Source of the DNA: Pseudomonadota bacterium
GTDB lineage: Bacteria > Bdellovibrionota_G > JALEGL01 > DATDPG01
Direction of reading: 5' to 3'
NCBI GenBank assembly: GCA_043809315.1
Contig: JAZDDX010000012.1
Span: 1 to 43,796, forward strand
DNA: 43,796 nucleotides
The translations under genes were made by a program, and so were the position numbers. Shown here one piece after another: positions 3,799-38,500 of this stretch (its first letter is position 1; the number at the start of each line of letters is the position of its first letter). The notes under the pieces are model-generated. The model was given only the letters and a program-made list of their open reading frames with translations. It was not told where the DNA came from and did not search any database.

Positions 3799-4229
3799 CA
3801 CCGCCATCCTTCCGGTCTGTCTTTTTGCCTGGTCAGTTCGTTTTCGAGGATTTTGACGTACGCCTCAAGGTCGGCGACTTCCTGTTTCTTTTCCGACAAG
3901 AGCTGTTCCCGTTCTTTGAGGCGAATGTCTTTTTCGGCGATCAGTTTCTCGCTCATCAGGAGATAGTGATGAAGGGCCTTGCTCGAAAACTCGACGATGC
4001 TCGTAACGTTCGATCCTTGCGGCGCCACAAGCGTCGCCGAGTGAAGATCGTCAACCTCTTCCCGAAGCGTCGGTTCCGGGGCTGCAGAAACCGCCCCGTC
4101 GGGGGGTTGGATATACCAATGCTTGCCGAATTTTTTGGCGAAAAGACGCCCTTCCTGGATCTGCCGACGGACCGTCGAGATCGAGACCCCCATCCGATCC
4201 GTGTATTCACGAATGGAGTACCAGCTCAT
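3798..4229 (-). CDS. MerR/excisionase-like (HTH_17-type) helix-turn-helix protein with C-terminal coiled coil
   Basis: YSIREYTDRMGVSISTVRRQIQEGRLFAKKFGKHWYI is a winged-HTH pattern; heptad-rich tail EKDIRLKEREQLLSEKKQEVADLEAYVKILENEL. Confidence 0.85.
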   Translation of the reverse strand: MSWYSIREYTDRMGVSISTVRRQIQEGRLFAKKFGKHWYIQPPDGAVSAAPEPTLREEVDDLHSATLVAPQGSNVTSIVEFSSKALHHYLLMSEKLIAEKDIRLKEREQLLSEKKQEVADLEAYVKILENELTRQKDRPEGWR

Positions 4230-4297
4230 ATTCTTGAATACCTATCTGACCACGTTGCGATGCGCCAGTTAAATCTTCTTGTTTTTATCTCAGACAC

Positions 4298-6166
4298 TTA
4301 GGCGTGGCGTTCTGAACGAAATTTGCGCAAATAAATACTCAAAACTCCGATCGCGGCGGGGGTCACGCCGGAGATCCGGGAGGCTTGCCCGAGAGTCCTC
4401 GGTTGATGTCGGATCAGCTTCTCCCGAACTTCAAACGAAATGCTCGGCAGGGTCTGAAAGTCAAAGTCGTCGGGGATCTCCTCCCCCTCGTCCCGAAGAG
4501 CCCTGGCGATCTCCTCCCTCTCCCGCACCAGATATCCTTCGTATTTGACCGAGATCTCGACCTGCTCCGCGACGGCCGGGTCGGTCCCTTCGAGCTCCGG
4601 CTCCAGGCCGACAAGCGTCCCCCAGGTCACTTCGGGGCGGCGGAGAAGTTCGGCTAAGCGGGTCGGCGTCCGGATTGGTGGGATCTGGAGGTTGGCGAAA
4701 CGGTCACGCGTTTCCCGTGTTGGCTTGAGGGTCTTGCGGTTGATCCGCCCCGTTACCTGCGCGAGCTCCGTCATCTTTCTCTGGAAAAGGTTGTCGACTT
4801 CCGTGGTGATCAAACCAAGACGTTTTGCGTGCGGGTGCAGCCGTTGATCGGCGTTATCCTCGCGCAGGGCAAGGCGGTGCTCGGCACGAGAGGTGAACAT
4901 CCGGTACGGTTCCGTGACCCCCTTCGTGACCAGATCGTCGATCAGAACCCCGATGTACCCCTCCCCCCGCTGGAGAACAAACCGGTCTTTTCCTCCCAAG
5001 GAGAGAGCCGCATTGATCCCGGCAACGACCCCCTGGGCTCCGGCCTCTTCGTACCCGGTCGTGCCGTTGATCTGTCCCGCATGGAACAGTCCGCGGATTT
5101 TCTTCGTCTCCAACCACGGCTCGAGTTCGGTCGGATCGACGTAGTCGTATTCGATTGCATATCCAGGTCGCAGCACCTCGACTTTCTCGAGCCCCCGGAT
5201 CGTCTGGAGAAAATCGACCTGGACCGAAAGTGGCAAAGAGTTGGAAAGTCCGTTCGGGTAGACCTCCTGCGTGGAGAGCCCTTCCGGTTCCAGGAAGATC
5301 TGGTGACTCCCCTTCTCCGAAAATCGGACCACCTTGTCCTCGATGCTAGGACAGTACCTAGGTCCAATTCCGAAAATTTTTCCTCCATATAGTGCTGATT
5401 TAGATAAATTATTTCGAATGATTGCGTGTGTCTTCTCGTTTGTGTGGGTAATGTGACACGATATTTGTCGCTGAAGTGGGGCGTTATGGAAAAAAGAAAA
5501 CGTTCTTGGTGGCACATCTCCACGTTGTTCTTCTAGGTCGTCATAACAAATTGTTTTTACATCTAATCTTGGCACTGTTCCGGTCTTGAGACGTCCCACT
5601 TTTAACCCGTTTTGAGTCAAACTGTCGGAAAGATGGGTTGATGGCTGATCCCCCGCCCTACCCGCCCGCTCCCGGTAGTCGCCGATGTGGATCAGACCGT
5701 TCAGAAACGTTCCGCTGCAGATTGCGGTAGCTCCCGCTCGGAGTTCCTCCCCCGTTTGGGTTCGAACGCCAAGGCAGCGCCCCCGCTCTACCAACAGGTC
5801 GGCCGCCATTCCCTGTTTCACGTGAAGCAATTTGTGGTTTTCAAGCCGTCCTTTCATCCTTCGGACATAGAGTTGGCTGTCGGCTTGCGCTCGAGAGGAC
5901 CAAACGGCTGGCCCTTTCTTCGTGTTGAGGCGACGGAACTGAATCCCGGTCTCATCGATCGCTCTCCCCATCTCGCCACCGAGCGCGTCGATCTCCTTCA
6001 CCAGATGCCCTTTTCCAACCCCCCCGATTGCTGGGTTACAAGACATGTGACCAATCCGCTCGGGGTTGCTCGTCAGAAGGCAGACCTGTGCCCCCATCCG
6101 AGCAGCGGCTGCGGACGCTTCGATGCCGGCATGCCCGGCACCTACGACCAGAACGTCAAACTTCAT
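4298..6166 (-). CDS. mnmG: tRNA uridine-5-carboxymethylaminomethyl(34) synthesis enzyme MnmG (GidA)
   Basis: [14 protein letters not shown] motif, [50 protein letters not shown] at 6166 lies in an ATGA overlap with the upstream gene. Confidence 0.98.
5814..5829. promoter_or_regulatory. parS site inside mnmG
   Basis: TGTTTCACGTGAAGCA, 1 mismatch to the consensus palindrome TGTTTCACGTGAAACA. Confidence 0.85.
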
Positions 6167-6897
6167 TCCTTGATGGTGCTCCGGGGAGCGTAATACCTGT
6201 TTCGGACTGAAATTCCAGGGTAGACGAGACACTTCTTCCCGAGGAGGGCGCCGGGGTTCAGAACCGAGTTACACCCGGTCTGGCACCCGTCGCCGAGAAT
6301 CGCCCCCATCTTCCGGAGGCCGGTCTTGACCTTCTCCTCCCCGAAGTGGACGACCACTTCGTCGTTCGTGATCTTCAAATTCGAAATCTTCGTCCCGGCC
6401 CCGAGGTTCACGTTCGCTCCAAGGATCGCGTCCCCGACGTAGGCGAAATGCGGGGCTTTGGCTCCGTTCAAAAAGAGAGAGCTTTTTACTTCGGAGGTAT
6501 GGCCGATCACACATCCCTCCCCCGTCGCGACCCCGCCGCGAACGTAGGCGCCGTGTCGAACGGCGGTCCCCTCCCCGAGGATCGTCGGTCCCGCCACCCA
6601 GGCCCCCGCCTCGATGATCGTCCCGTTCCGAAGTTCGATCTCGTCCCCGACCAGATAGCTCCCCGCCTCGACCGTCGCGGTTTCTTTTCCGGATTGGATC
6701 GTTGTCGTCTTGAGAACCAGCGACCCCTCTCTCGGAACGGTCGAGACGTTCCCCTTCAGTCGTTTCCGGATCCACTCCTCTTTGAGTTTCGGAGCGAGAA
6801 CCCCCCAGACATTTTCGGATGCCGAAAAGATCTCGGCGAACCAAAGGCCGGTGAGGTCGAAATAGTGGCTTGTGAGATTTGTTTCACGTGAAACCAT
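6163..6897 (-). CDS. Left-handed beta-helix (hexapeptide repeat) acetyltransferase resembling the C-terminal domain of GlmU / sugar-1-phosphate nucleotidyltransferases
   Basis: Hexapeptide repeats; [28 protein letters not shown] and [22 protein letters not shown]; no N-terminal nucleotidyltransferase GxG(T)R motif. Confidence 0.88.
6880..6895. promoter_or_regulatory. parS site over the first codons of the LbH gene
   Basis: TGTTTCACGTGAAACC, 1 mismatch to consensus; encodes (M)VSRET on the minus strand. Confidence 0.9.
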
Positions 6898-14907: not shown

Positions 14908-18510
<3,603 letters not shown>

Positions 18511-18511
<1 letters not shown>

Positions 18512-20979
18512 TGGCGACGACGGAAACGCAAAAAATCCTTCCGAGAACAATCGAGGACGAAATGAAATCGGCGTACCTCGATTACGCGATGAGCGTGATC
18601 GTGGGGCGCGCCCTGCCGGACGTCCGCGACGGGCTCAAGCCGGTTCACCGGCGCTGTCTGTACGGGATGTACGACATGGGGAACGTCCACGGGAAGCCGT
18701 ACCGGAAATCGGCCCGCGTGGTCGGAGACGTGATGGGGAAATACCATCCCCACGGCGATGCGGCGATCTACGACACGATCGTCCGAATGGCGCAGGACTT
18801 TTCGTTGCGCTACATGCTGGTCGACGGGCAGGGGAACTTCGGCTCGGTCGACGGCGACGCCGCGGCGGCGATGCGGTACACCGAGATCCGCCTCGCGAAG
18901 ATCACGGAGGAATTCCTCTCCGACATCGACAAGGACACGGTCGCCTTCGGCCGGAACTACGACGACACGCTCGACGAACCACTTCTTCTTCCGACGCGGA
19001 TCCCGAACCTTCTGGTGAACGGATCGGCCGGCATCGCCGTCGGAATGGCGACGAACATCCCGCCGCACAACCTGACCGAAGTCTGCGACGCCCTGATCGC
19101 GATGATCGAGAAGCCGGACCTCGACAACAAAGCCCTCTTTGCGATCGTCAGGGGGCCGGACTTCCCGACCGCCGGGTTGATCTACGGCAAAAAGGGGATC
19201 CGGGAGGCGTACGAGACCGGGCGCGGAAAGTTCATGGTCCGGGCGCGTGCGCTGATCGAGGAGGTCGGCAAGGGGGACCGGCAGCAGATCATCGTGAGCG
19301 AGATCCCCTATCAGGTGAACAAGGCACGCCTGATCGAGACGATCGCCGAATTGGTTCGCGACAAGAAGATCGAAGGGATCAGTGACCTGCGCGACGAAAG
19401 CGATCGCGACGGGATGCGGATCGTGATCGAGCTCAAGCGCGACGCGACGCCGGGGATCGTCTTAAACCAACTCTACGTCAACACGCAGATGCAGACCTCG
19501 TTCGGGGTGATCATGCTGGCGCTGGTCAACAACCGACCGAAGGTCATCACGCTTCACGAGGCGCTCCAGCTCTTCATCGACCACCGGAAAGAGGTGGTGA
19601 CGCGGCGGACGGTTTGGGAACTGAAGAAAGCGGAAGACCGCGCGCACATTTTGGAGGGGTTGAAGATCGCGCTCGAGAATATCGATGCCGTGATTGCCCT
19701 GATCCGGAAATCGAAAGACCCGGAAGTCGCCAAAGCAGGCCTCTGCGAGAAGTTCAAACTGTCGCCGGTCCAGGCGACGGCGATCCTCGAGATGCGTCTC
19801 CAGCGGCTCACGAATCTCGAACGGGAGAAGATCCTCGATGAGTACAAGGGGACGATGAAGCTGATCGAGGAGCTCCAGAAGATCCTCGCGAACGAGAAGC
19901 TGGTCTACGACCTGATCGTCAAAGAGCTCAACGAGGTCAAGGAACGGTACGGCGACAAGAGGCGGACGGAGATCAAGGCCCAGCTCGAGGAGTTCTCGGA
20001 AGAGGACCTGATCGAGGAAGAGGAGATGGTCGTCACCGTCACGCACGCCGGGTACATCAAGCGGAATCCGATCACGCTCTACCGCAGCCAACGGCGCGGC
20101 GGAAAGGGGAAGGTCGGAACGGGGGTCAAAGAGGAGGATTTCGTCACCTCCCTCTTCGTCACGTCGACCCATTCGTACCTGCTCGTCTTTTCCGATCGCG
20201 GGCGCCTCTATTGGGTCAAGGTCCATGAGCTGCCGCAGGCGGGAAGGGCGGCCAAGGGGAGGCCGATCGTAAACCTCGCCCAATTGTCGCCGGGGGAATC
20301 GGTCGCGGCGCTCTTGCCGGTCTCCGAGTTCGTCGAGGGGAAGTACATCATCATGGCGAGCCGGAACGGGATCATCAAGAAGACCGACCTGATGCAGTTC
20401 GCGAACCCGCGCGCGAGCGGGATCATCGCCTGCGGGATCGAGGACGGCGATCGGATGATCGCGGCGGCATTGACGACCGGGACGAGCGACATTTTCCTGG
20501 CAACGAAGAACGGGCAAGCGATTCGGTTCAACGAAGACGAGGTCCGCGCGATGGGGCGGCAAGCGGTCGGAGTCTGGGGGATCGATCTCGACAAGGGGGA
20601 CGCGGTTGTCGGGATGCAAGTTCTGCAAGCGGAGGGGACGCTTCTGACCGCGACGGAGCACGGTTACGGGAAACGGACGGAGACGACTGAATACCGCAAA
20701 CAATCCCGAGGGGGCAAAGGCGTCATGACGATCCGCGTGATCGACAAGAACGGGCCCGTCGTGGGCGTGGCGCAGGTGGCGCAGGACGACGATGTGATGC
20801 TGATCTCCGATCAGGGGCAACTGATCCGCGTCCGGGCAAAAGATATTTCACTCATCGGCCGTGCGACCCAAGGGGTGCGGCTCATCAACGTGGCGGAGAA
20901 CGAAAAGCTCGTCGCGCTCGCGAAGATCGTCCCCGAGGACGACGAAGAAAACGGCGCTGCGACCGAGGGGAACGCCTAA
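18511..20979 (+). CDS. gyrA: DNA gyrase subunit A
   Basis: [24 protein letters not shown] active-site Tyr, QRRGGKG GyrA-box, acidic tail; TGATG overlap with gyrB. Confidence 0.98.
20952..20979 (+). repeat. Left copy of a 28-bp direct repeat (gyrA 3' end including stop)
   Basis: CGGCGCTGCGACCGAGGGGAACGCCTAA; 26/28 identical to 23715-23742. Confidence 0.9.
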
Positions 20980-21070
20980 GCCGGAAAGAACCTCAGTGCA
21001 TGTGCTCATTTTCTGCGCTCCCGACAACCCGCAGCGCATCGCAAGAAGCTGAATTTACAACCATATTTAT

Positions 21071-21086
21071 TGGCATGTAGCCTGCA
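21071..21086 (+). promoter_or_regulatory. Sigma54 (-24/-12) promoter of the secreted metalloprotease
   Basis: TGGCAT-GTAGC-CTGCA vs consensus TGGCAC-N5-TTGCW, with correct GG/GC spacing; IHF-like CAAGAAGCTGAAT at 21042-21054. Confidence 0.65.
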
Positions 21087-21100
21087 GCAAGGAAGTCCTG

Positions 21101-23479
21101 GTGCCGAAAACGGTCGCGATTAGGAATTGGATCTGGGGTCTTTTGGGCCTTTTCCTGTTCTCGGCGCACGGGAGCTACGCACAAACGACCTCCGCGAAGG
21201 ACCCCCTTGCAGAGACCGCCCAACGATTAGCCCGAGAATACAACGTCACACTGGTGGGGAGTTGGAGTGGGGGGGACCTGGCAAACGCCAAGTACCTGAT
21301 CCGGATCTTTGAGCTGCTCGGCCGTCGTTCGAGCCCGATCGAGCTGGAGTACACGAACGAACTCTTTTATCCTCCGGTCCGCGGCGGCCGGGACAAAAAC
21401 ACACTGGTTCTTTCCCACGACGCGTTCGAATTACGTCCCCCGACCTCGGACGACACCCTGCCGCCGGGCTCGGGAGAAACGTACGTGACGTACCGTATGG
21501 ACCTCTTGAAGTCCCTGCTCGCGGAGTTGGCGGACGAAAAAGACCTCGCCCGAATTCTCAAGAAAAAATTCGGACTCAGCCTCGGCCCGCCGTCGAGCAC
21601 GCTCCAGCCCGAGATGTTCGGGACATTCACACGAGACGAGCTCCTCCCTCTCGTGCAGTTACTGCTCGACATTCACCCGGACCACACGCGGATCAAGAGC
21701 CTCGAACGGATCGTCCGCGCGGCTCCGGGAATCCGGGTGGAACATCCCAGGATGCCGGGAACCTTCGTGGCCGCTCAGTACGACGGCGCGCTCCGCGCGC
21801 TCGTCTTTTTCGACGACGCCTTCGGCGGCAAGTCGCCGTCGATCGATCACATCGTTGCGCATGAGTACGGCCATGCCGTTTGGGAAGGGTTGGGAGACGA
21901 TGTCAAAGAAGGCTACGCGCCAACCGCGGAGGAGATCCTAACTGACTACAGCATGGTTTCGAAGGAAGAGCTCTTCGCGGAACACTACGCCCTGTACATG
22001 GTCGAGCCGGACCGATTCAAGAAGACCGCCCTGAACCACTATCGTTTCTTCGAGCGGCGGGTGTTCAACGGGACCCGATATTTCAAAACCGTCGCGGATC
22101 AATACAAGGTCTATGTGGAGCAGAAGGGGGCCGCCGACACGCAGCCTCCGACATTCGAAGACGTGGAAGGGGCGATTCAGCTCGTCGATCGACCGGCCCG
22201 CACGGATTGGAATCGGACCGTAACCTTCACCCTTCTGTTCAAGACGGTGGCGGACGACTTAAGCGGAGTCGATCACGGGACGCTGTATTTTCAATCGGAA
22301 CAGGGAGACATCCAACAGAGCGGTCAGGGGTTTCGATATGACGTAGGCCGGCGGGGATATTTTGCCACGGCGTGGGTCGACCTTGCCCGGGCGAAAGCAA
22401 CGCGGCTTTACCTGACCGGATTCAGCCTCGTCGACGCCGCCGGGAATGAAAGAAGGTTCAGCTTCGACCCCGGCGCGCGAGCCAAACGACTGTCGATCGA
22501 TGTCCCGGGAACCTCCGAACGGGACACCCGCCCGGTGAAGATCGCGGTCGGTACGGCCGAGGATGTGCATCTCCGAGTTCTTCCGGATGATGGGGAGATG
22601 TCGGGCCATTTCGTCAAGGGGATGGCGACCGTGGTTGAGATCTCGTTTCCCATCAAAGTCGCTGGCGGACAGAAGATACCGAACGGGACGGCGTGCCTCC
22701 GGCACCCGAAGACCGAGCAGCGACTTTGCGCGCCGATTTTCGTGCACGATGAGCAGAAAACCCCGGGGCGCCTTATCGGGGAGTTCTTGGTGGATGCGTT
22801 CCGGCCGAGTGGAACATGGAAGCTCGAACGGATCGAGGTTCAGGACCGAAACGCGGCGGGCGGGAACACCGGGCTCGGGGTCGATGCGCTCAACATCTCG
22901 ATCAATATCCCGACCAAGTTGCCGGACAATGCCCCGGCCGAAATCGACCTGAAGGGGGTTCGTCCGCGAGTGGTTCAGGAAAATGGCGGCTCGGAAGCGG
23001 GGACGTCCATTGAGGTGGAGGTTCCCTATTCCAAAGCGAGCGGACAGACAAGGATCACGGTCTGGATCAACGATCCGAACGGAAAGAGTTTCTGCAGCTC
23101 GATATCGGCGCTCGATCGCCCGGCCAAGGACACAAAAACGGGGGCCGTCGTCAGCTATGAGTCCTGCGCAAGACACCGCATGCCCGAAATTCAAAGAGCC
23201 TATCAAGCGTTCATGGACGGTTCGTTCGAAGGCAAGGCCGACAGCCGATTCCAGTGGGTCACAGGGGAACAATCCGGAGTAGGGAAGGTTCGCGTGAAGC
23301 TCCCCCCCTATTTTACGGGAGGGGTCTACACGATCGAGTACATCTCGATCGAAGAGGAAGACGCCTTCACGGCCTCATCGATGGACTCCCCGCGATATTC
23401 CAAAGGGTACAGCCTCGTTCAGCGGAACATCCAGTACAAGATTTCGGTTCAGCGACCGCGCGAGGCGCCCAAGCACTAG
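21101..23479 (+). CDS. Secreted zinc metallopeptidase (HExxH plus downstream E) with C-terminal beta-sandwich repeats
   Basis: Signal peptide ending SYA-Q; AHEYGHAVW and YS..SKEELFAEHYALY (lethal-factor-like/gluzincin pattern); repeated Ig-like motifs (DDLSGV..., SLVDAAGN, GTWKLERIEVQD, GVYTIEYISI). Confidence 0.85.
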   Translation: MPKTVAIRNWIWGLLGLFLFSAHGSYAQTTSAKDPLAETAQRLAREYNVTLVGSWSGGDLANAKYLIRIFELLGRRSSPIELEYTNELFYPPVRGGRDKNTLVLSHDAFELRPPTSDDTLPPGSGETYVTYRMDLLKSLLAELADEKDLARILKKKFGLSLGPPSSTLQPEMFGTFTRDELLPLVQLLLDIHPDHTRIKSLERIVRAAPGIRVEHPRMPGTFVAAQYDGALRALVFFDDAFGGKSPSIDHIVAHEYGHAVWEGLGDDVKEGYAPTAEEILTDYSMVSKEELFAEHYALYMVEPDRFKKTALNHYRFFERRVFNGTRYFKTVADQYKVYVEQKGAADTQPPTFEDVEGAIQLVDRPARTDWNRTVTFTLLFKTVADDLSGVDHGTLYFQSEQGDIQQSGQGFRYDVGRRGYFATAWVDLARAKATRLYLTGFSLVDAAGNERRFSFDPGARAKRLSIDVPGTSERDTRPVKIAVGTAEDVHLRVLPDDGEMSGHFVKGMATVVEISFPIKVAGGQKIPNGTACLRHPKTEQRLCAPIFVHDEQKTPGRLIGEFLVDAFRPSGTWKLERIEVQDRNAAGGNTGLGVDALNISINIPTKLPDNAPAEIDLKGVRPRVVQENGGSEAGTSIEVEVPYSKASGQTRITVWINDPNGKSFCSSISALDRPAKDTKTGAVVSYESCARHRMPEIQRAYQAFMDGSFEGKADSRFQWVTGEQSGVGKVRVKLPPYFTGGVYTIEYISIEEEDAFTASSMDSPRYSKGYSLVQRNIQYKISVQRPREAPKH

Positions 23480-23691
23480 TCGGATTGGACGTAGGCAGCC
23501 TCGCCCCCCCGGCCATCGCGTGTAACCACGACAAAAACCAGATTGTGATCGGCCGGTGCGGTCTCCGCCGGGGTATATGCAGTCGCCGCGCCGGGGTCGG
23601 TGACTTTGAGCGAGAGGTCGCCGAAGGAGGTCGTACGTTTCGACAAGCCCGACGGCAAGTAAAGTCCCCATGCGGCTGGGGTATGTACCAT
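23476..23691 (-). pseudogene. Probable 3' remnant of a gene truncated at the islet boundary
   Basis: Protein-like C-terminus ...AYTPAETAPADHNLVFVVVTRDGRGGEAAYVQSD* whose stop overlaps the metalloprotease stop (CTAG). There is no room for an N-terminus before the repeat at 23715. Confidence 0.45.
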
Positions 23692-23714
23692 CGGGAGCTA
23701 TCGGTTGTCGACGC

Positions 23715-23742
23715 CGGCGCCGCGACCGAGGGGAACGCGTAA
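23715..23742 (+). repeat. Right copy of the 28-bp gyrA-tail repeat
   Basis: CGGCGCCGCGACCGAGGGGAACGCGTAA, encoding GAATEGNA* like the end of GyrA. Confidence 0.9.
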
Positions 23743-23747
23743 ATTCT

Positions 23748-26504
23748 TTAGAACCGGTACCCGCTGACCTGCATGAAGCCGTCGAAGTCGAGGTAGATCT
23801 TCATCCCGTCCTCGAGGGTGAGCGCGAATCGAGCAGGGCGGAAGGTGTCGCTCACCAGATCCAGCGCTTTCCCCTCCACCTGAACCGACTTGATCTTTCC
23901 CAGGGCGTTGCCGTTCAAGTCGAGGTTCGCGATGGGGGCTTCGCGGGTTCCGACCTTGGAGAGATCGCCCAGTTCGCTCACCGGCCCCTTCGGGGACTCC
24001 TGAATGGAAACTCGGACGGCCCCCCGGTTTTTCGTGAGGAAGACCAGGGCGTCTCCGTTGGCCATCTCCACGCTGACGACGTCGGTCGCTCCGTTTCGAG
24101 GGTAGCGCGTGACCCCGGCGAGTTCATCGCGAAGGCCGCCGAAGGCCTTTAACGCCTTCTCCCCTTTCCCGAAGAACGCAATCTCGTTGGTCGGGAGGTT
24201 AAAGAAATTGCTCAAGCGATTCCCGGCATGAACGGGGGTGTTTCTCAGGAAGATACCGTTGTCGGGGGTCAGGATGTTCAGTTCGACGAGCGTGTTTCCC
24301 TGGGTCGGGACTTCGACGAAGTTGGCATTCATCCGGGGTTTTCCCCAAACTTGGTGGGTTGTCGCGGTTGCGTAGTAGTCGTCGAGGGCGCGTGCGTTTT
24401 TCGCTTGCCGGCGGAGATATTTGGTCTTGCCGACGATCGCGTCGTCGAAGATGCGAGCAATCCGTTGGGGAGGAGCGAAGGCGGGGGTTCGAGTACCCTT
24501 CGAAAGGATCAGGTCGCCGATCTCGTAGTAATCAATTGCAGGGCCGAAGGAAAGCGGCTCCGGAGCCGGGTGGATGATCATGTTGTCCGGGAGGTTGGCG
24601 GGAACGTTCGCCGGTCGCGGACGGAGGAAGTCGTCATTCCGCCGGAGGAGCGAAGAACGATCGATTTCAAGGGATTTGAACTCATGGGTCAGTTTTTGAA
24701 GCTTGGCGAGGTCAGTCTTCTCGATGGTGAGTTTCGCGACCGCAGCACCATCGAAAGAGTTCGGAAGCTTGCCGCCATGATTTTTCTTGAGGATCATTTC
24801 AATCAGATCGAGGAACTCACGCTCGGCGGCATAAAACTTCGGTGCAAACGTCTTCGTCACATAGCCCTTAAACATCGAAATATCGGACAGATTCTCAAAC
24901 AGAAGCGTTTGGGTTTTGGTGACCCCCTTGATCTCCAGCCGGTTGATCTGCCTGAACGTGCCATCTTGGAGTCGGATTTCAACAACATCCGCGCGGTCTG
25001 CAATGCCCAGTTTGTGTCCCGAGTAGGTCGTCCCGTCTTTCAACTCGATCTTGAGCAGCTCACGAGGCCCGATGTCGTCGAGATATCCGGGCCATTCGAT
25101 CTTTGCTTTCTTGATCGCCGACTTCGAAAACGTTCTGGTTCCCCCAGTCTCCAGCTCAAGCGTGATCTCGTCTTGGGTGATTTTCACCCGACGACCGACA
25201 TAGGTGTTCATACTCCCGGAGGTCGGATCCTCGATCCCGATCGAGATCCGTTCGTCGGGATGGGCGCGGTCGATCTTCCCCTGCCAGGTGCTCGGCTCTT
25301 CGGTGACCGATGTCTTTTTCTTCCTTGTTTCGGCAACCGTTTTTGAAGGGCTCTTCGCCATCGCGAGATTCGTCACGACCGGCGAGACGGATGCAAGCCC
25401 CGATTTTGGCGCAACCGCCCCCGCAACCCCGACGAGTGACCCAGCCGGAAGCTGTTCGCCGGCGGTGGTCACCAGAACAGCACCGGATGGCGGGAGCTCC
25501 CCAGCCTGGCGAATCACCCGACCGATTTCGGCTAACTCCTTGGCAGTTCCCCGAACGAAAGAGACGCCCCCCTTTGCCGCGAAGGCAAAGAGGGCCCCCT
25601 TCACGGTAAGTTGTGTGACTTGCGTGGTCACCTCGTTGTAACGATCGTTCTTGAATGCCCCGTACGCGGCGCCGGCATGGTCGGCGATCTCGCCGGCCGG
25701 TTTGCAGACCATGAGATCGGTTCCCTGAACCCAGAGCCAGGCGAGCCGCTTGGTCGCGAGGTTGAGGCGATCGAGAGACTTCGGAAAGAAGTCGGGGGAT
25801 CGGTAATGTTTCCAGATCCCGGCAGCCCAATCGGGAATCGAGTCATCGTCTTCCATCGACGGCACGGTGGAAAGGCGGTCGAGGCTGCCCTGCGCCGAGC
25901 CGATGAGTTCGGGGGCGTGGGTGATCATCTGCCAGATTCCGCTGAACATGCTTCCGATCGTCTGGGCCGCCGTGACCCCGGCAAGCTCCACATTTTTCAG
26001 GAGAACGATCGGGAACGGTTTTTTCGGGTCGTAGTGGAGGATTTTGATCTCCCCCGCCGGCGTGAATTGGGCATAAGCAAGAACGCGACCCCAGAACGTG
26101 ACGTGGAGTCGAAGACGACCCGACTCGGCTTTGACCTGGATATCGCGAACGAGCGTCGTGTTTCGGCGATTGAATTCGTGGGAATCGAGATCGATCCGGG
26201 ACGAAGGCGACGCGTGGAAAAGGTCGATGTCGACAAAGTCATCCCCGTAGGTGACGTTACCGAGAGAGGTTGCACCACTCACGATCGAGGCTTTTCGTTC
26301 CCCCCGGCAGGCGGGGGAGAACTCCAACCCAACCGACTTCCCTTCAAAGGAAGGATGAAGGGGGCCGAGGTCGAGAACCGCGATCTTTTCGTATTTCACG
26401 ATTTGGGAAGGTTCCTCGCGGACGTGGATCGTTGCGCCGGAGTTCTGCGCCAGCGCGGGAACAGAGCCCAACAAGAGGACCGCAGCTATGGACCGAAAGT
26501 TCAT
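23748..26504 (-). CDS. Large secreted multidomain hypothetical protein, 918 aa
   Basis: Signal peptide MNFRSIAAVLLLGSVPALA-Q; central Ala/Gly-rich helical region; two Sm/SH3-like beta repeats; unrecognised C-terminal domain. Confidence 0.85.
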   Translation of the reverse strand: MNFRSIAAVLLLGSVPALAQNSGATIHVREEPSQIVKYEKIAVLDLGPLHPSFEGKSVGLEFSPACRGERKASIVSGATSLGNVTYGDDFVDIDLFHASPSSRIDLDSHEFNRRNTTLVRDIQVKAESGRLRLHVTFWGRVLAYAQFTPAGEIKILHYDPKKPFPIVLLKNVELAGVTAAQTIGSMFSGIWQMITHAPELIGSAQGSLDRLSTVPSMEDDDSIPDWAAGIWKHYRSPDFFPKSLDRLNLATKRLAWLWVQGTDLMVCKPAGEIADHAGAAYGAFKNDRYNEVTTQVTQLTVKGALFAFAAKGGVSFVRGTAKELAEIGRVIRQAGELPPSGAVLVTTAGEQLPAGSLVGVAGAVAPKSGLASVSPVVTNLAMAKSPSKTVAETRKKKTSVTEEPSTWQGKIDRAHPDERISIGIEDPTSGSMNTYVGRRVKITQDEITLELETGGTRTFSKSAIKKAKIEWPGYLDDIGPRELLKIELKDGTTYSGHKLGIADRADVVEIRLQDGTFRQINRLEIKGVTKTQTLLFENLSDISMFKGYVTKTFAPKFYAAEREFLDLIEMILKKNHGGKLPNSFDGAAVAKLTIEKTDLAKLQKLTHEFKSLEIDRSSLLRRNDDFLRPRPANVPANLPDNMIIHPAPEPLSFGPAIDYYEIGDLILSKGTRTPAFAPPQRIARIFDDAIVGKTKYLRRQAKNARALDDYYATATTHQVWGKPRMNANFVEVPTQGNTLVELNILTPDNGIFLRNTPVHAGNRLSNFFNLPTNEIAFFGKGEKALKAFGGLRDELAGVTRYPRNGATDVVSVEMANGDALVFLTKNRGAVRVSIQESPKGPVSELGDLSKVGTREAPIANLDLNGNALGKIKSVQVEGKALDLVSDTFRPARFALTLEDGMKIYLDFDGFMQVSGYRF

Positions 26505-26536: not shown

Positions 26537-26658
26537 AGGCAACCCATTGAAATCATTAAAGTGAAATTCTGGCCGGGTGGCAAAAAATGGGAACAAATGT
26601 CTCGGGCTTTGTCGAGTGGCCAACGGGGTGGAACTGCGGTAGGGAATCAATCTCTCGA

Positions 26659-27465
26659 ATGCGATTCCGGTCATTTTACTCAGGGGTTTTGCTCTCGGTG
26701 GTCCTGACCGGGGCATTCTCCTGCACCACCTCCGACTTCCGGTCGGCGGAGGAGATGCTCCGTCATCGGAAGTTCTATAACGCGATCGAATTGTACCTGT
26801 CGTTCGTGCGCGACCATCCGGATCACCGGCGTGCGACGGAGGCGCTGTTCCAGGTGGCGAACATCGAGCAGATGATGCTGAACGATCCCGCCAAAGCGCT
26901 GGTCACGTATCGAAAGTTGGTCAGCGCGTTCCCGGTCAGCGAATACACGATCCTCGCCCAGCGGCGGGTGGCCGATCTTCAGAAGAACCACTTCGCAAAC
27001 TTCCACCAGGCGATCGTCGAGTACGAAAAGCTGATCAAGATCGTGCCGAACCACGCCGATGCCCCGGCGTTCCAGTTGGAGGTCGCGCGCTGCTACACCC
27101 TTCTCCACAACTTCGATCAGGCGGCGATCGAGTATCAAACCCTTCTCAAGAAGCATCCAAACTACGATAAGCTGGACGAGGCGTACTTCGAGATGGCGAA
27201 CAATGCGTATATCGCCGGGAAGTATGATCGGGCGATCGCCGCGTACGAGGCGGTATCGGCGAAGTACCCGAAGTCGCTCTTGCGGGTACAGGCGATCTTC
27301 GGCGCGGCCTCCTCCTATGAGGAGATCGACGACATCGATAATGCCCGGCGTCGGTACAAGGAGATCGAAAAAGAGTATCCATCCCCGAAGGTCGTGGCGA
27401 TCCGGCTGGCGGGGCTTGAAAAACGGGAGAGGATGAGGAACAAGCCGGGGGTTCCGATCAAATAG
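26659..27465 (+). CDS. TPR-repeat lipoprotein (BamD/CpoB-like)
   Basis: Lipoprotein signal MRFRSFYSGVLLSVVLTGAFS-C; repeated A..Y..L...(Y/F)P TPR helices. Confidence 0.85.
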   Translation: MRFRSFYSGVLLSVVLTGAFSCTTSDFRSAEEMLRHRKFYNAIELYLSFVRDHPDHRRATEALFQVANIEQMMLNDPAKALVTYRKLVSAFPVSEYTILAQRRVADLQKNHFANFHQAIVEYEKLIKIVPNHADAPAFQLEVARCYTLLHNFDQAAIEYQTLLKKHPNYDKLDEAYFEMANNAYIAGKYDRAIAAYEAVSAKYPKSLLRVQAIFGAASSYEEIDDIDNARRRYKEIEKEYPSPKVVAIRLAGLEKRERMRNKPGVPIK

Positions 27466-27473
27466 GGAGGCAT

Positions 27474-28760
27474 ATGGGAAGCGGAAGTCTTTCGAGAGAG
27501 TTGTGGCTGGCGTCGCAAAAGCTGATGCCGGGCGGGGTGAACTCGCCGGTCCGGTCGTTTTCCGCCGTCGAGGGGGACCCGATCTTCATCGAGCGGGCGA
27601 AAGGCTCGAAGATCTTCGACGCCGACGGCCGCGAGTATCTCGACTACGTGATGAGTTGGGGGCCGCTGATCCTGGGACACGCCCACCCGGAGATCCTCGC
27701 GAAGATCCGCAAGGCCCTCGATCGCGGCACGTCGTTCGGCGCGCCGACCGGATTCGAACTCGAACTCGCCAAACTCGTGACCGACGCCTTCCCCTCGATC
27801 GAGATGATCCGTTTCGTGAATTCCGGGACCGAGGCGACGATGTCGGCGATCCGTCTCGCCCGCGGCGTGACGGACCGAAACAAGATCCTGAAGTTCGACG
27901 GCTGTTATCACGGGCACGCCGACTCGCTTCTCGTGCAGGCGGGATCCGGGGTCGCGACCCTCGGCATTCCGAGCTCGCAAGGAGTTCCTCTCGAACTGGC
28001 GGCGCTGACGGTGAGCGTCCCTTACAACGACCTCGACCAGACGAGGCGGGCGTTCGAAAAAGACCCGACCGGGTTCGCAGCGATCATCGTCGAGCCGGTG
28101 GCCGGAAACATGGGGGTGGTTCTCCCGGAGAACGGGTTCTTGAAAGGGTTGCGTGACCTGGCGACCGAGTACGGGGCGCTGCTCATTTTTGACGAAGTGA
28201 TGACCGGGTTCCGCCTGGCGATGGGCGGAGCGCAGGAGAAGTACGGGATCCAGGCGGATCTGACCTGTTTGGGGAAGATCATCGGTGGCGGCCTGCCGGT
28301 CGGTGCGTACGGCGGAAAGCGTGAGTACATGGAAAAGATCGCCCCGCTCGGAAAAGTCTACCAGGCCGGAACGCTCTCGGGGAACCCGATCTCGATGGCG
28401 GCTGGGATCAAGACCCTCAAGCTTCTGCGCGAGCCGGAGATGTACGAGAAACTCGGCTACCGGACCAGCTATCTGGCGGACGAACTGGTGAAGCGCGCCC
28501 AGAAAGCCGACATGCAAGTTACGGTGAACCGGGCCGGATCGATGCTGACCCTCTTCTTCCACAAAGGACCGGTCCGGAACTTCGCCGACGCGCAACAGTC
28601 CGATCGCGCGCGGTTCGTCCGGTACTTCCAGGGGATGCTGGAGGAGGGGATCTACCTGCCCCCTTCGCCGTACGAGGCGTGGTTCCTCTCGATGGCGCAC
28701 ACGACGGAGGATCTTGAGAAGACGCTCGTTGCGCACGAACGGGTGCTCAAGAAGCTGTAG
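27474..28760 (+). CDS. hemL: Glutamate-1-semialdehyde 2,1-aminomutase
   Basis: MPGGVNSPVR, SWGPLILGH, NSGTEATM, GCYHGH, FDEVMTGFR, GKIIGGG (PLP Lys), YQAGTLSGNP; GGAGG SD. Confidence 0.98.
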   Translation: MGSGSLSRELWLASQKLMPGGVNSPVRSFSAVEGDPIFIERAKGSKIFDADGREYLDYVMSWGPLILGHAHPEILAKIRKALDRGTSFGAPTGFELELAKLVTDAFPSIEMIRFVNSGTEATMSAIRLARGVTDRNKILKFDGCYHGHADSLLVQAGSGVATLGIPSSQGVPLELAALTVSVPYNDLDQTRRAFEKDPTGFAAIIVEPVAGNMGVVLPENGFLKGLRDLATEYGALLIFDEVMTGFRLAMGGAQEKYGIQADLTCLGKIIGGGLPVGAYGGKREYMEKIAPLGKVYQAGTLSGNPISMAAGIKTLKLLREPEMYEKLGYRTSYLADELVKRAQKADMQVTVNRAGSMLTLFFHKGPVRNFADAQQSDRARFVRYFQGMLEEGIYLPPSPYEAWFLSMAHTTEDLEKTLVAHERVLKKL

Positions 28761-33797: not shown

Positions 33798-35512
33798 AGC
33801 GCGGCACGATTCAGATTCTCGCCGCCCTTCTGACGTTGGTGTGGATCCGGCTCCTTCTCGCGGTTTTCTATTTCGACACGCCGATTCCGATCGGTCCGAT
33901 CTCCGACTCTTGGATCTATTTCGGTCTCGGCCGTTGGTTCGGGGCCACGGGAACGATGCCGGCGGAGGCGGTGTTCCACCCGCCTCTCTACCCCTATCTT
34001 CTCGGCTGGATCTTCCGCCGGTTCGGCCCATCGCCGATCCCGGTTCTCGCGCTTCAGAGTCTCGCGGGGATTACGTGGGGACTCATCGTGATCCGGTGGA
34101 CGCAGCGGTGGGCGGAGCGGAGCTGGATGCCATGGGTGACGCTCGGGGTTCTCGTCTTCTCGGCCACCCCGGTCGTCATGATGGAGTGGCGTCTCCTTCC
34201 GGAAACATTCGCACTCCTGGCCGAGGTCGCGGCGATCGAAGCTCTCTGGCAGCTTCAAAAAGGAACGTGGCCGAACCTCGGGTCGGTGATCGTCTCCCTC
34301 ATCATGGCGTTTCTCATCCTCCTGCGTCCGAACTTTGTTCTGGCGGTTCCGATCGTCTGGATTTGGGGTTTTCGGGAACATCGAAAGGGAAGAGTTTCTC
34401 TCGGGTTCTTCGCCTGGAACATTGTCGTCCTGGCGATCGTCACGGCGCCGATCGTGGCGCGGAACCACGGATGGGGGGCGGGAATCGCGCTGAGCGCGAA
34501 CTCGGGGATCACGTTTTATCAGGGGAACAACCCGGCCGCGCGCGGGGGATATACCCAGCTACCCGGGGTCGATTCCGACGTCACACGACAGAACGAGGAC
34601 GCCCGCCGCCAGTCGGGGGAAGGAGATCTTCAAACCTCCGACCATCATTGGTGGCGGGAGGGGGCAACGTTCCTGGCGGGGAATCCCGGTCGAGCGGCGC
34701 TTCTCGCGCTTCGGAAAGGGGGCCTCTTCGTCAACCCGACCGAGCCGGGAGGCGACATTCCGTTTCTGTTCGAACGCCAGCGGCTTCCGGTTCTCTATCC
34801 GCTCGGCACGCTCAACTTCACCGTCCTTCTTCTGCTGGCGATCGTCGCCGTTCGTTTCGGGCGAAAGAAAAAAACGCCGTGGGGATTGTTCGCTGGATGG
34901 GGCGCCGTATCGTTCGCCACCTGCATGCTGTTCTACGTGAACGGGAGATATCGCCTTCCGATCTGGCCGATTTTGGTCTTCCTTTCGGTGCTCGGCCTGG
35001 AGGAGGGGGTGAAACGGCGGAAAGAACCGGTGGTTTGGTTGGTTCTCCTGGCGCTCCCCGCAATGATCTGGATCGGCTGGCGCGTCCCCACGGCACCCCG
35101 AACCCAAGTCACCGGATGGCACAACTGGGGGACCGCCTGGGAGCATTTCGGTTTCGTGGAGCGGGCTCTTCCTTCCTATCGGAACGCGCTCGCGATCGAT
35201 CCGGGTCATCGGCCCACCCTCGAAAACATGAGCCGCGTCTATTTGGCCGTTCCCCGGATCGATCGCGCCAAAACCGTTCTTACCGAACTGATCACGCGGC
35301 ACCCGGATTCGTTCGTTGGGCACAACAATCTGGCGGTGGTCTATCTCTTGGAAAGAACCTGGGACGAGGCGATCTCGGAAGCGACGATCGCGCTCCGCCT
35401 CCGACCGGGGAACAAAGCGGCGGAATTCAATCTCCGGAGGGCACGGGAACTGAAATCGATCTCGGTAATCGGACGAAGAAAAGCAATGCTTCAGGGACCG
35501 ATTTCCCGGTGA
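33794..35512 (+). CDS. Polytopic membrane glycosyltransferase (GT-C, ArnT/PMT-like) with C-terminal TPRs
   Basis: DS..Y, PPLYPY, RPN, FYQGNNP, RYRLP motifs, many TM segments, then TPRs; GTGA overlap start at 33794. Confidence 0.8.
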   Translation: MKRGTIQILAALLTLVWIRLLLAVFYFDTPIPIGPISDSWIYFGLGRWFGATGTMPAEAVFHPPLYPYLLGWIFRRFGPSPIPVLALQSLAGITWGLIVIRWTQRWAERSWMPWVTLGVLVFSATPVVMMEWRLLPETFALLAEVAAIEALWQLQKGTWPNLGSVIVSLIMAFLILLRPNFVLAVPIVWIWGFREHRKGRVSLGFFAWNIVVLAIVTAPIVARNHGWGAGIALSANSGITFYQGNNPAARGGYTQLPGVDSDVTRQNEDARRQSGEGDLQTSDHHWWREGATFLAGNPGRAALLALRKGGLFVNPTEPGGDIPFLFERQRLPVLYPLGTLNFTVLLLLAIVAVRFGRKKKTPWGLFAGWGAVSFATCMLFYVNGRYRLPIWPILVFLSVLGLEEGVKRRKEPVVWLVLLALPAMIWIGWRVPTAPRTQVTGWHNWGTAWEHFGFVERALPSYRNALAIDPGHRPTLENMSRVYLAVPRIDRAKTVLTELITRHPDSFVGHNNLAVVYLLERTWDEAISEATIALRLRPGNKAAEFNLRRARELKSISVIGRRKAMLQGPISR

Positions 35513-38500
35513 TCGAACGAAGAGCCTCGGCGTAGAGAGAGAGCTGGGGGGCGTATGCCTCCACACGGGCGGCGAGATCGGCGTCGGACACCCGATCGGT
35601 TTTGTAGTCGACCACGATCAACCCCCCGGGTTCCTCGAAGATCAGATCGATCACTCCCTCGTAAAGCGTCCCTTCTTTCCGGAACGAGAACGGCGTCTCC
35701 CGATAAACCGCACGGGCCCGTGCAATGCGAGCGAAAAGATCGGATTGGAGTGCGTTCCGGGCGAGCATTTGAAGCTCGGCGGCCGCGTCCGGAACTCCGA
35801 ACTCGGCTGCGGTTGCGTGGCAGAGAGTGGGAAGGGTCTCCATCCGGGGTACGGGATCGATCCGCTCCAAAATCGCGTGGAGGGCCGATCCGATCGCAGC
35901 CGCCGATGAAGAACGGAGGCCCGAAGAAACCTTCGGTCGATTGTGCCGGACCAACTCGGTCGCGGTCCGGATCGCGAGGCCCGGGATCCAACCCGAATTC
36001 CGCTCATCCAAGAGCTTCCGGACCCGAACGTTCTGCCGCTGGAGAACATCGTCCGGTTCGGAGCGGGTCACCTCTTCGTCGGAGCGGCGGGGCTCCCGGA
36101 GAGGGAGGGCGGAAACCGGAATCGTTTCCGTCCACGGGGCGCCGGCCGGGAGCGCCGGCTCGAGAAGCGCCCAGAGATTCCCGGGCGCGCCTCGCTGGGT
36201 CGGGAAGTAAGGGAGGATCAGAAGATCCCGCGTGCGGGTGCAGGCGACATAAAGAAGACGGCGGCGCTCCTCCTCGCACCTTCCCTTTTCCGCCGCCGAC
36301 AACCCCTCGAACTCCGGTGTCGCGAACCGTTTTTCTTTCGCTCCGATCCCGAGCGCCAACTGCCCGCGGAAGCGGTCGGCGACGACGATCTCCCGTTGAT
36401 CGGACTGCGCGGTCAGTTTCGCCAGAACCACTACGGGGAACTCGAGCCCCTTCGCTTTGTGAACCGTCATCAGGCGGATCCGCCGCTCCTCCTCCTCGGT
36501 TAGAGGGGACTCTCCCTGTCGCTCCGCCTCCTCCGTCCGTTCTCGGGCCCACTCGGTGAAACGGTCGAGGCTCGCCCCCTCAAGACGTTCGTGCGCGCGG
36601 GCCAGCGACAGGAACCGCTCGAGATTCGCGACCGCCTGCTCGCCGTGGGGTCGTGCGAGGGTCAACGGGATCGCGGAAGTTCTACGGAACAGTTCCCGCA
36701 CGATCTGCGACGGAGCCAGAGATTCGTGCACCGCATGGAGATCCCTAAGGACCGAGAACGCGGCGGGGATCGGCTCGGGAAGTCCGGAGGTGTCGGCCCG
36801 GCGGTAGTCGAGCGGGATGCCGGTCCGGGCCAGAAGCGAGAGATCCTGATCGGAAAGAGCGAACAGAACGGAGCGGAGCGCGGCGACGACGGCGATCGGG
36901 TCGGTGGGGTGGGCGATCGCATCGAGCACGGAGAGGGCGGAATGGATCTCGGTCCGTTGGTAGAAAAGTTGACCCCCTTCGAGGGAGAAGGGGAGGTCGT
37001 AGCGGCGCAGGGCCTCCTCGTAGAGATCGATGTCGGTGGTGGAGGGGAACAGAATCGCGACATCCTGCGGCCGGATCGGGCGGAGAACTTCGGTTCGGGG
37101 GTCGAAAATACGGGGGCGCGGATCATCGATCAGCGAACGGAGACAGGCCGCGATCGCATCCGCCTCGGCCCGCCGGGCAGCCGGAGCGCTGTCCGCGGGG
37201 CCGGGGACGGGATCCTCCACGCGGAGCACCGAAGGGAGACCGGGCGGGGAAAGGTGGCCGGCATCCGCCTCGATCGTCTCGTAGCCTTCGGAAAGGACAG
37301 TTCCGAAGATGGCGTTGATCCAGGAGACGAGCGGCGGGGAGGCGCGAAAATTCTGCCGGATGACGAGGCGGCTTCCCGCGCGAGCCACATGGTCCCGCGC
37401 GGCCGCGTACACCTCGATCGAGGCGCGCCGGAACCGGTAGATCGACTGCTTCGGATCCCCGACGATGAAGAGTTTTCCCGACGTGAGGGGCAGCGCATCC
37501 CAGCGGGAGGGCGTGCGGTCCCCCTCGGAAGCGAGAAACCAGATCAATTCCGTCTGAACCGGGTCGGTGTCCTGGAATTCGTCGACCAGGATGAACCGGT
37601 ACTTCCTCCGAAAATATTCGCGAACATCGGCACGGAGCTTGACGAGGTCCCGCGCCTTGAAGAGGAGGTCGTCGAAATCGAGTTTTCCGGCCGACGCCTT
37701 CTCTCGTTCCACGAACGAGACGAACGAGGAGAGCCAGCGCAGCAGATCGGCGAAGATCTCCGCCCGCAATCGGCCGTGCGCCTGTTCCAGGCGCTCGCCG
37801 AGCGCCTTCATCCGGTCCTTCTGTTCGCGGCAGATCTCGGGGTCGGCCCAGTTGGCGCGGTTTCCTTTGGCGGAGGCGCGCAGGCGGATCAGAAGAGCGC
37901 GTTCCTTGGTTGCCCGCGTGGCGTCGCGAACGGCGTCCGCCTCGCGGTGCAGCGCCTCGATCTCCCGGTAGCCGGCGTCCTCGACGTTCACGCACGAACG
38001 AGAGGCGAGGGACCAGAGCGCTTCCGTTTCCCGGAGAAGGGCCGCGAAAAAAACCTCCGGATCGAAGGTCGAGCGGACGAGCGAAAGCCCGGGCAGAAGG
38101 TCCCGGTGGGCGTAGAGCTCCATCGCGAGCTCCCCCACCCGGTCGAGGGAGATCCCGGCGGCCAACGCGCGGCTCAGCGGATCGACCGACGCGGGGATCC
38201 GGTCGAGCGCCGAGGCGAGCCATCGGTCGTACGCTCCCTGGAGGAAGAGGTTCCCGGCGAACGCATCCAGCTGTTCGAAATTCGGATCGACGGCGGCCTC
38301 GAATGGGCGCTCGCGCAAGAGCGAACCGGCGAACGAATGGATCGTCGAAATCGGGGCCCGGTCGAGCTCCTCGATTGCGTCGACGCGGTTTCGCTTCGTG
38401 AGTTCCTCGCGGATCTTGTCCCGGAGCTGGGCGGCCGCCTTCTCCGTGAACGTGATCGCCACGATCTGGGAGGGGGTCGCGGCTCCGCTTTCCACGAGGT

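Follow-up and report, generated by a model that had tools for sequence, protein, structure and literature searches.

A small islet between two copies of the gyrA 3' end in a Bdellovibrionota_G genome

The gyrA end and its second copy

The window analysed here is the whole of contig JAZDDX010000012.1 (43,796 nt, G+C content (GC) 61%, here C12), one of 44 contigs in GenBank assembly GCA_043809315.1, a 2.42-Mb, 96% complete genome of a Pseudomonadota bacterium that GTDB places in Bdellovibrionota_G. It carries gyrB (15980-18511) followed by gyrA (18511..20979, plus strand, 822 aa; PF00521 at E 8.6e-168 and PF03989 at E 3.8e-74), and a Pfam scan of the open reading frames (ORFs) of the window makes both identities certain. 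Behind gyrA lies a small islet, consisting of a spacer, a gene for a 792-aa protein and a truncated lipoprotein pseudogene, that ends in a second copy of the last 28 nt of gyrA, next to the stop codon of a convergent gene for a 918-aa protein. How this arrangement came about is the subject of this report.

The 28-mer CGGCGCTGCGACCGAGGGGAACGCCTAA at 20952..20979 (plus strand) is the working 3' end of gyrA, comprising its last eight codons plus TAA, and reads GAATEGNA*. A second copy at 23715..23742, also on the plus strand and identical at 26/28 positions, is a stranded, non-coding gyrA tail. The copies differ at position 7 (T/C) and position 25 (C/G), with 17 nt as the longest identical run, and the corresponding codon changes (GCT/GCC and GCC/GCG) both lie at silent third positions of four-fold degenerate alanine codons, so GAATEGNA* is encoded in frame by the left and the right copy alike. 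A preliminary description, made from the letters of the window, had reported just such a downstream duplication with two silent differences, and the present analysis agrees with it: none of 100 dinucleotide-preserving shuffles reached two matches, and the runner-up ungapped match to the 28-mer across the window is 19/28. Because 22 of 81 single changes are silent, the chance that two random changes would both be silent is about 0.07. The silent nature of both differences is what two working gyrA alleles would show, which makes it suggestive, though not strong, evidence for such an origin.

The repeat is unique to this place. Its 17-nt core occurs exactly twice across the assembly, and a sensitive self-BLAST of the islet returned no further copies of the 28-mer there, such that a genome-wide check proposed in the preliminary description ends with these two copies, neither of them beside an integrase. 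A third tail copy, sought at the far end of the 918-aa gene as tandem accretion, was absent. Similarity between the two copies ends abruptly 5' of the 28-mer and, on the 3' side, at the stop codon. As had been noted earlier, 5 nt separate the TAA of the right copy (last base 23742) from the stop codon (first base 23748) of the convergent 918-aa ORF.

The word AGAACC stands at +8 to +13 past both TAAs (20987-20992 and 23750-23755), after seven unrelated bases, and GAACCGG lies near three junctions; the right-hand AGAACC is part of the last codons of the 918-aa gene. Because both words are common in the genome (0.86 and 0.57 per kb, respectively), I treat them as probably chance and rejected them as a shared junction motif.

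The islet, its neighbours and the same interval in relatives

The islet opens with a 121-nt spacer (20980..21100, plus strand, GC 0.51), in which a simple scan found no match to a sigma-70 consensus and where, by eye, AGGAAG stands 5 nt ahead of a GTG start. The cargo gene that follows (P0001; 21101..23479, plus strand) encodes a 792-aa protein with a signal-peptide-like N-terminus (again by eye), HEYGH at residues 254-258 and a long C-terminal extension. This protein has no Pfam match at E<=0.01 and no near relative among the 5.8 billion proteins searched, and an exhaustive HMMER search gave 97 distant relatives (E<=1e-3, at most 33% identity). Across 37 aligned relatives H254, E255 and H258 are invariant, and 31 of the 37 match PF15890, Peptidase_Mx1 (best E 1.5e-10). 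A profile of the family also weakly matches PDB entry 9urd_A, a zinc metallohydrolase lipoprotein (E 3.2e-5). Because the relatives match PF15890 and the protein itself does not, it is a distant relative of that family by transitivity and not a scored member; on these grounds I read it as a secreted, distant Peptidase_Mx1-like putative zinc hydrolase. In composition the gene is native-like, with a GC of 0.598 against 0.597 for the genome, and its tetranucleotide distance falls at the 15th percentile among 219 windows of the genome.

Next to the right copy lies a lipoprotein pseudogene (23479..23704, minus strand) corresponding to about residues 183-278 of 278, which is truncated at its 5' end and has one frameshift. 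On the minus strand, 23628-23479 is identical at 43/50 positions (86%) to the C-terminal residues (229-278) of P0101; this protein, encoded in a JGI metagenome, is 278 aa long and has a lipoprotein-type N-terminus. A frame-shifted continuation at 23659-23621, LAVGLVETYDLLR against LAAGFAETYDEIR of P0101, corresponds to residues 198-210; the gap between this and the first piece amounts to about 18 missing codons, and fainter similarity reaches 23704. The truncated gene remnant that the preliminary description saw beside the right copy is thus real, its assignment being secure over 23479-23659 and weak over 23660-23704, and its cut end lies about 10-55 nt from the right repeat copy. The 235 nt from 23480 to 23714 have a GC of 0.63, against 0.50-0.51 in nearby true spacers.

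For comparison I used 40 genomes of relatives, four at family level and 11 at order level, none of them of the same genus. Intact homologues of the lipoprotein gene (32-54% identity) are present in 7 of the 11 order-level relatives and in none of the four at family level, and wherever the gene is present it lies behind a partner gene of about 480 aa on the same strand. This partner was not found in the present genome with the G007 copy as query. In G006 and G014, the relatives in which both were located, the lipoprotein gene and gyrA are on separate contigs, and none of the window ORFs of at least 100 aa, gyrA included, has a match in the roughly 1.5 kb on each side of the lipoprotein gene in any of the seven relatives. 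A P0101 query of species-representative genomes returned no close relative.

Of the sampled words of the region, a share of 0.12 is present in X1, a run from a subsurface metagenome, and the X1 contigs span 19902-20255 and about 23008-23507, the latter with 0-2 differences, without crossing a junction. A second run from the same study contains no words of the region. One X1 contig (depth 2.3) matches 23275-23507 and resumes at 23569, with eight other letters replacing the 61 nt of 23508-23568; this variant, which has 18 nt on the far side, would be a weak hint of a second pseudogene deletion in a near-identical strain.

Beyond the right copy, the convergent 918-aa gene (23748..26504, minus strand) encodes an orphan with a signal-peptide-like N-terminus (by eye). 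The protein has no Pfam match, matches only itself among 5.8 billion proteins and gave nothing above the stated score bars in a protein atlas, and the gene is found in none of the 40 relatives. Its GC is 0.585, against the genome's 0.597, and its tetranucleotide distance lies at the 28th percentile of the 219 genome windows. The 792-aa gene was not found in any of the 15 family- and order-level relatives and has weak partial matches in 3 of the 40, all beyond order level; in two of these three (G015 and G016) the retrieved surroundings of the match contain no gyrA. Both genes are therefore lineage-specific. Further downstream stand a gene for a TPR protein (26587..27465, plus strand) and one for a class III aminotransferase (27474..28760, plus strand), both assigned by Pfam, whose counterparts in the five relatives compared below are 53-60% and 64-78% identical, respectively (tblastn).

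The locus itself was compared in four genera of the same family (G001-G004) and in G014 (loci L022, L021, L023, L024 and L025), where the gyrA orthologues are 71-78% identical in amino acid sequence over the portions retrieved. The TPR and aminotransferase pair lies downstream of gyrA, on the same strand, in all five, and what lies between gyrA and the TPR gene is different in each of the six genomes. The gap is 34 nt in G014 and 377 nt in G004, with nothing inside either; it is about 1.1 kb in G001, with a convergent TSP3-repeat ORF, 1476 nt in G002, with a molybdopterin oxidoreductase gene, and 1997 nt in G003, with Sir2 and the same oxidoreductase as in G002. In the present genome it reaches 5607 nt and holds the 792-aa gene, the pseudogene and the 918-aa gene. 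The interval has long been a variable spot.

None of the five relatives has a repeated gyrA tail, and their gyrA tails differ (…PPGNA*, …PAGEA*, …VAGNA* and …PVGSA*), which makes the repeated sequence specific to this lineage. The preliminary description had called gyrA a landing pad for secreted-protein cargo. This is half right: the interval does differ in six genomes, but the relatives hold ordinary genes and no repeated tail, so the term applies only loosely, in the sense of a variable interval. It had also suggested looking for an empty site, with gyrA directly convergent on the 918-aa gene, and no such site was found among the 40 relatives; because the 918-aa gene itself was found in none of them, such a site could not be recognised there. 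The nearest relatives are other genera, with 64-75% DNA identity in the 3' part of gyrA. When the DNA from 20300 to 24600 was compared with all 40 relatives the gyrA part alone matched, and the best hit of a GyrA C-terminus search of metagenome contigs was only 58% identical.

Signs of mobility and other duplicated gene ends

One of the two direct repeats rebuilds the 3' end of a gene, as attL and attR do at an integrated element, and the preliminary description had offered, as one of two options, that the repeats are attL and attR of an element mobilised in trans. The islet ORFs (23254-23742) have no Pfam or PHROGs match, so no recombinase, transposase or phage genes are seen there. The genome has 10 matches to PF00589 and a single match to PF00239, all on contigs other than this 43.8-kb one, in keeping with the absence of an integrase reported from the letters alone. 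Because the core occurs nowhere else in the genome, there is no attP-like copy beside an integrase anywhere in the assembly, which is 96% complete and could still have an unassembled partner. A degenerate pattern of the tail matched no viral, no metagenome and no species-representative genome records, tRNA and Rfam scans of the region gave nothing, and a limited literature search found no report of the gyrA 3' end as an integration site. With no recombinase on the contig, no third core copy and no match to the tail pattern, the proposal of a trans-mobilised element finds no support here. Clean excision between the repeats is possible on paper, over a longest identical run of 17 nt.

A transposon with a target-site duplication was also considered and rejected, as there is no transposase-like ORF inside the duplication and neither inspection nor an inverted-repeat list gave terminal inverted repeats at the inner islet ends. 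A repeat of 28 nt also far exceeds the target-site duplications that are known. The composition of the islet, in tetranucleotides as in GC, is typical of the genome.

Elsewhere the genome does contain integrase-associated islands at tRNA ends, at C24 1-12552, C17 131103-137843, C17 59687-66862 and C7 about 7400-38300. These have direct repeats of 23-89 nt that include tRNA 3' ends, and tyrosine-recombinase genes lie inside or beside them, a sign that islands of the integrase-driven kind are active here or were so recently. On C38 (L100) a 1.2-kb islet without an integrase lies between 32-nt repeats (31/32 identical) at 34595-34626 and 35840-35871, in which 13 nt come from the 3' end of a tRNA and 19 nt follow, a classical position for att sites; its cargo is one gene for a 329-aa alpha/beta-hydrolase with a signal-like N-terminus.

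Comparison of the genome with itself revealed the same anatomy as at gyrA, with no recombinase between the copies, at two more loci. On C29 (L098) a perfect 24-nt repeat at 3251-3274 and 6871-6894 consists of the last six codons of a TetR-family gene (2456-3271), its TGA and the next 3 nt. The cargo is a single gene for a 1168-aa secreted-type S8 peptidase (3362-6868), and the right copy begins 2 nt past the stop of this gene, ahead of a radical-SAM gene. An empty site was not seen here, as the TetR-family gene is not beside the radical-SAM orthologue in G001, G002 or G004. C16 carries a 31-nt duplication (29/31 identical), at 130054-130084 and 131391-131421 (5055-5085 and 6392-6422 of L099), of the very end of a minus-strand gene for a 467-aa sigma-54 activator. 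Only a DUF4143 AAA ATPase gene lies between the copies, and the stranded one directly adjoins the stop of a convergent gene of 417 aa. In G004 (L126) this layout is uninterrupted, the activator stop being overlapped by the convergent gene. G003 (L129) has an independent, perfect duplication of the last 80 nt of the same activator gene; the copies enclose a DUF2442/DUF4160 pair, and a Zeta_toxin-family ORF lies further on. The repeat sequences are unrelated between loci, which speaks against a single site-specific enzyme and for a general process. The recurrence of tail duplications at stop codons is a lead, not a result.

A repeat family of another kind was seen on C43 (L102), where 42-54-nt repeats stand at 4164, 6114, 6989, 9723, 14140, 15227 and 16414, irregularly spaced. 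One pair of these (54 nt, 96% identical) brackets an SPFH/Band 7 gene.

Origin of the islet and comparison with known systems

The explanation I favour, with about an even chance of being right, is that the repeat is the scar of a short-homology or illegitimate recombination event by which DNA from a close relative was joined at the end of gyrA. The repeat does not look like a working attachment site, and nothing looks like current mobility. I infer the direction of the event, its donor and its enzymology as follows. A piece of about 2.7 kb from a closely related strain would have joined the chromosome at the very end of gyrA, running from 28 nt before the gyrA stop through the spacer and the 792-aa gene to the middle of the lipoprotein gene. 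One side would have joined through the short gyrA homology and the opposite side illegitimately, either by a single (Campbell-type) crossover of a circularised fragment inside the 28-nt homology or by homology-facilitated illegitimate recombination (HFIR) anchored in gyrA. The outcome would be an intact gyrA end, a resident tail left behind 5 nt from where the 918-aa gene, also resident, stops, and a lipoprotein gene that arrived already cut and decayed afterwards.

Two features of HFIR are present at the locus, namely a homologous junction in a conserved gene (the gyrA end, where the repeat is the only homology and ends at the stop) and an illegitimate junction that cuts a gene (the 5'-truncated lipoprotein pseudogene at the stranded tail). 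I read the illegitimate joint at the right inner end of the islet because the truncated gene fragment reaches the stranded tail there. The lipoprotein gene itself belongs to the lineage's own gene pool, given its intact homologues in 7 of the 11 order-level relatives, and the native composition of the 792-aa and 918-aa genes means that the donor was a close relative or that the event is old. Together with the absence of a recombinase, the silent differences and the recurrence of this anatomy, with unrelated repeat sequences and again no recombinase, on C29, on C16 and in G003, these are the reasons for reading the repeat as a scar. Recombination with a related strain was the second option of the preliminary description, and it fits better than the first in having a cut native-type gene at the tail and DNA of native composition, with its donor and direction resting on inference.

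Several observations weigh against the scar. As 23660-23714 is only weakly assignable to the pseudogene, the joint is located only to within about 10-55 nt. RecA-type recombination in E. coli is efficient from about 30 bp, as quoted in an excerpt of PMC2884548, and 28 nt with 17 identical in a row is at or below that length, so the event would be rare. At all four loci (C12, C29, C16 and G003) the repeat ends 0-3 nt past a stop codon, a placement that a purely random process would not predict unless selection is invoked. A scan for isolated 24-mers repeated with at most three mismatches within 12 kb downstream gave no clear excess at stops, with 4 matches against 0-9 at 19 control offsets, and exact-word and genome-wide enrichment scans gave no clearer excess at stop codons. 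Searches of the 40 relatives and of the metagenome, genome and viral collections yielded neither a genome of the same species nor an empty site nor a donor arrangement. Finally, the integrase-less islet at the tRNA end on C38 makes decayed att-flanked islets plausible in this genome.

The same anatomy would arise if the roles were exchanged, which I consider unlikely. In that case gyrA, the 792-aa gene and an intact, convergent lipoprotein operon would have been resident, and a donor in which the 918-aa gene lay 5 nt behind gyrA would have brought that gene together with 28 nt of its own gyrA tail, the homology anchor lying to the right, on the TPR and aminotransferase side, and the left end forming an illegitimate joint within the lipoprotein gene. 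This would have deleted the latter's 5' part and the partner of about 480 aa, and the stranded tail would be the donor's. The pseudogene abutting the tail, the silent differences and the native-like composition fit this equally well. According to excerpts of PMC3240628, the resident DNA lost in HFIR is typically about as long as the insert, and a gain of the 2.76-kb 918-aa gene against a loss of about 0.55 kb of lipoprotein gene and a partner of about 1.4 kb suits that; furthermore, a hitch-hiking tail of under 30 nt or so would escape ordinary two-sided homologous replacement. Such an import nevertheless needs a separate, earlier event that placed the 792-aa gene right behind the gyrA stop, and at C16 the uninterrupted layout of G004 favours, on grounds of parsimony, one insertion into the tail over two events.

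Equally improbable is a site-specific element that used the gyrA 3' end, supplied a replacement tail and was later reduced to a remnant cargo, perhaps still mobilisable in trans. Integrase-less, att-flanked remnants of this kind are a recognised class, the cis-mobilisable elements (CIMEs), which lack recombination genes and share their att sites with a resident or related integrative and conjugative element (ICE) or integrative and mobilisable element (IME) whose integrase acts on them. Such integration is classically recognised by a pair of direct repeats, one copy of which restores the 3' end of the target gene, as in the case of prophage e14 at icd/icdC (excerpts of PMC13626634). Here the repeat end coincides exactly with the stop codon, and the genome has the ten tyrosine-recombinase matches, the tRNA-end islands with 39-89-nt repeats and an integrase, and the integrase-less 1.2-kb islet on C38. 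Against this, a recombinase is absent from the islet and from the 43.8-kb contig, the core is found nowhere else in the genome and the tail pattern in none of the viral, metagenome or species-representative genome records. The DNA at what would be attR is cut coding sequence of native type (GC 0.63) and not an arm region, the composition is not foreign, and five of five relatives lack the repeated gyrA tail. The three other, unrelated tail duplications would each require an integrase of their own, and the reading calls for several extra assumptions.

The recurrence at other loci raises two further readings, both of which I regard as highly doubtful. One is that the family repeatedly slots accessory genes behind the stops of conserved genes, duplicating 24-80 nt, and that the cassettes loop out and re-enter relatives via the tail; this is a long shot, and if true it would mean recombinase-free, homology-addressed gene cassettes that use the ends of housekeeping genes as addresses. 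If the recurrence at three more loci reflected a real cassette cycle, there would be a recombinase-free route of gene mobility. The other, slightly longer shot is a dedicated, undescribed process that inserts single accessory genes behind stops while duplicating 24-80 nt of the upstream gene. It could account for four loci in two genera (three of them in this genome, the fourth in G003) at which the cargo is each time one gene or a gene pair and the repeats end 0-3 nt past a stop. However, the junctions have no motif in common and no shared enzyme gene nearby, the repeats vary in length (24, 28, 31 and 80 nt), the control scans lack a clear stop-codon excess, and selection for intact flanking genes alone could leave the surviving junctions at stops. 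The gene fragment at the right end of the gyrA islet is also not expected of a clean cassette mechanism.

Chance similarity or an assembly artefact is hardly credible. The assembly is of the metagenome type, in 44 contigs, and the one public run that holds the region does so only as fragments, but a match of 26/28 in exact stop-codon register was reached by 0/100 shuffles, the next best being 19/28, a mis-join would not produce the pseudogene/tail junction, and the independent X1 contigs match 23008-23507 almost to the letter. A graph mis-join through the repeat is also unlikely, the 17-nt identical run likely being shorter than the k-mers with which metagenome assemblers usually work.

On the scar reading, nature offers here a clean case of a small accessory gene gained behind an essential gene with no damage to it, by an event that leaves a datable scar in the form of a stranded gene tail and a cut neighbour. 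Such scars would let gene gain by recombination be told apart from islands made by integrases in genomes of uncultured organisms, where islets flanked by direct repeats are easily over-read as mobile elements.

Among known systems, e14 comes close in outward form. In E. coli K-12 this prophage is flanked by icd and the C-terminal pseudogene icdC (excerpts of PMC13626634); there, as at gyrA, the insert supplies a new 3' end to a housekeeping gene and strands the original end as a direct repeat, and excision rejoins the gene and its stranded end at the cost of few amino-acid changes or none. In contrast, e14 is 15 kb long, with its own integrase and SOS excision, whereas the gyrA islet has 2.7 kb, no recombinase and no sign of phage genes or of excision. 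With a CIME the islet shares being a small piece of integrase-less DNA between direct repeats, one of which overlaps a gene 3' end, and it differs in that no partner element or second att copy was found in the assembly or in the viral, metagenome and genome collections. A further parallel, in the repeats, is provided by a survey of E. coli, S. aureus and S. pyogenes, in which, as far as the excerpted part of PMC2884548 goes, 10-18% of variable segments are flanked by direct repeats, mostly of less than 30 bp, that are attributed to illegitimate or short-homology recombination, HFIR being proposed for two-state loci. Short direct repeats flank a variable segment in that survey as they do here; its segments are mostly small and within species, and the gyrA islet comprises a whole gene plus a gene fragment.

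The islet also resembles orphan modules that have been displaced behind conserved genes, for which HFIR is the proposed origin in the excerpts of PMC5361080. In the effector-immunity arrays of type VI secretion systems (T6SS) and in the orphan tips of Rhs and contact-dependent inhibition (CDI) systems, new DNA sits behind a conserved anchor, the older end is displaced and a fragment is left stranded. The anchor in those systems is the conserved core of a toxin gene, and the stranded pieces stand at the front of orphan toxin or immunity genes, genes that are perhaps reused; at gyrA, in contrast, a housekeeping gene serves as anchor and the stranded 28 nt stand at the front of no gene. The remaining counterpart is HFIR itself, together with single-crossover integration of circularised fragments, as described for S. 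pneumoniae, A. baylyi, P. stutzeri and E. coli conjugation in the excerpted part of PMC3240628. By that account HFIR combines one homologous end with one illegitimate end at 3-10 bp of microhomology, and in E. coli circular molecules that entered by a single crossover duplicated the homologous segment in 56 of 60 events. Like the gyrA islet, these events show a homologous junction in a conserved gene, an illegitimate joint that cuts a gene, kilobase inserts and no dedicated recombinase, and single crossovers leave a direct duplication around the insert; the experimental duplications in the same source are 109-950 bp long, as opposed to 28 nt here. Read as a recombination scar, the gyrA islet is a fresh example of this already known type of event and a piece of ordinary genome plasticity.

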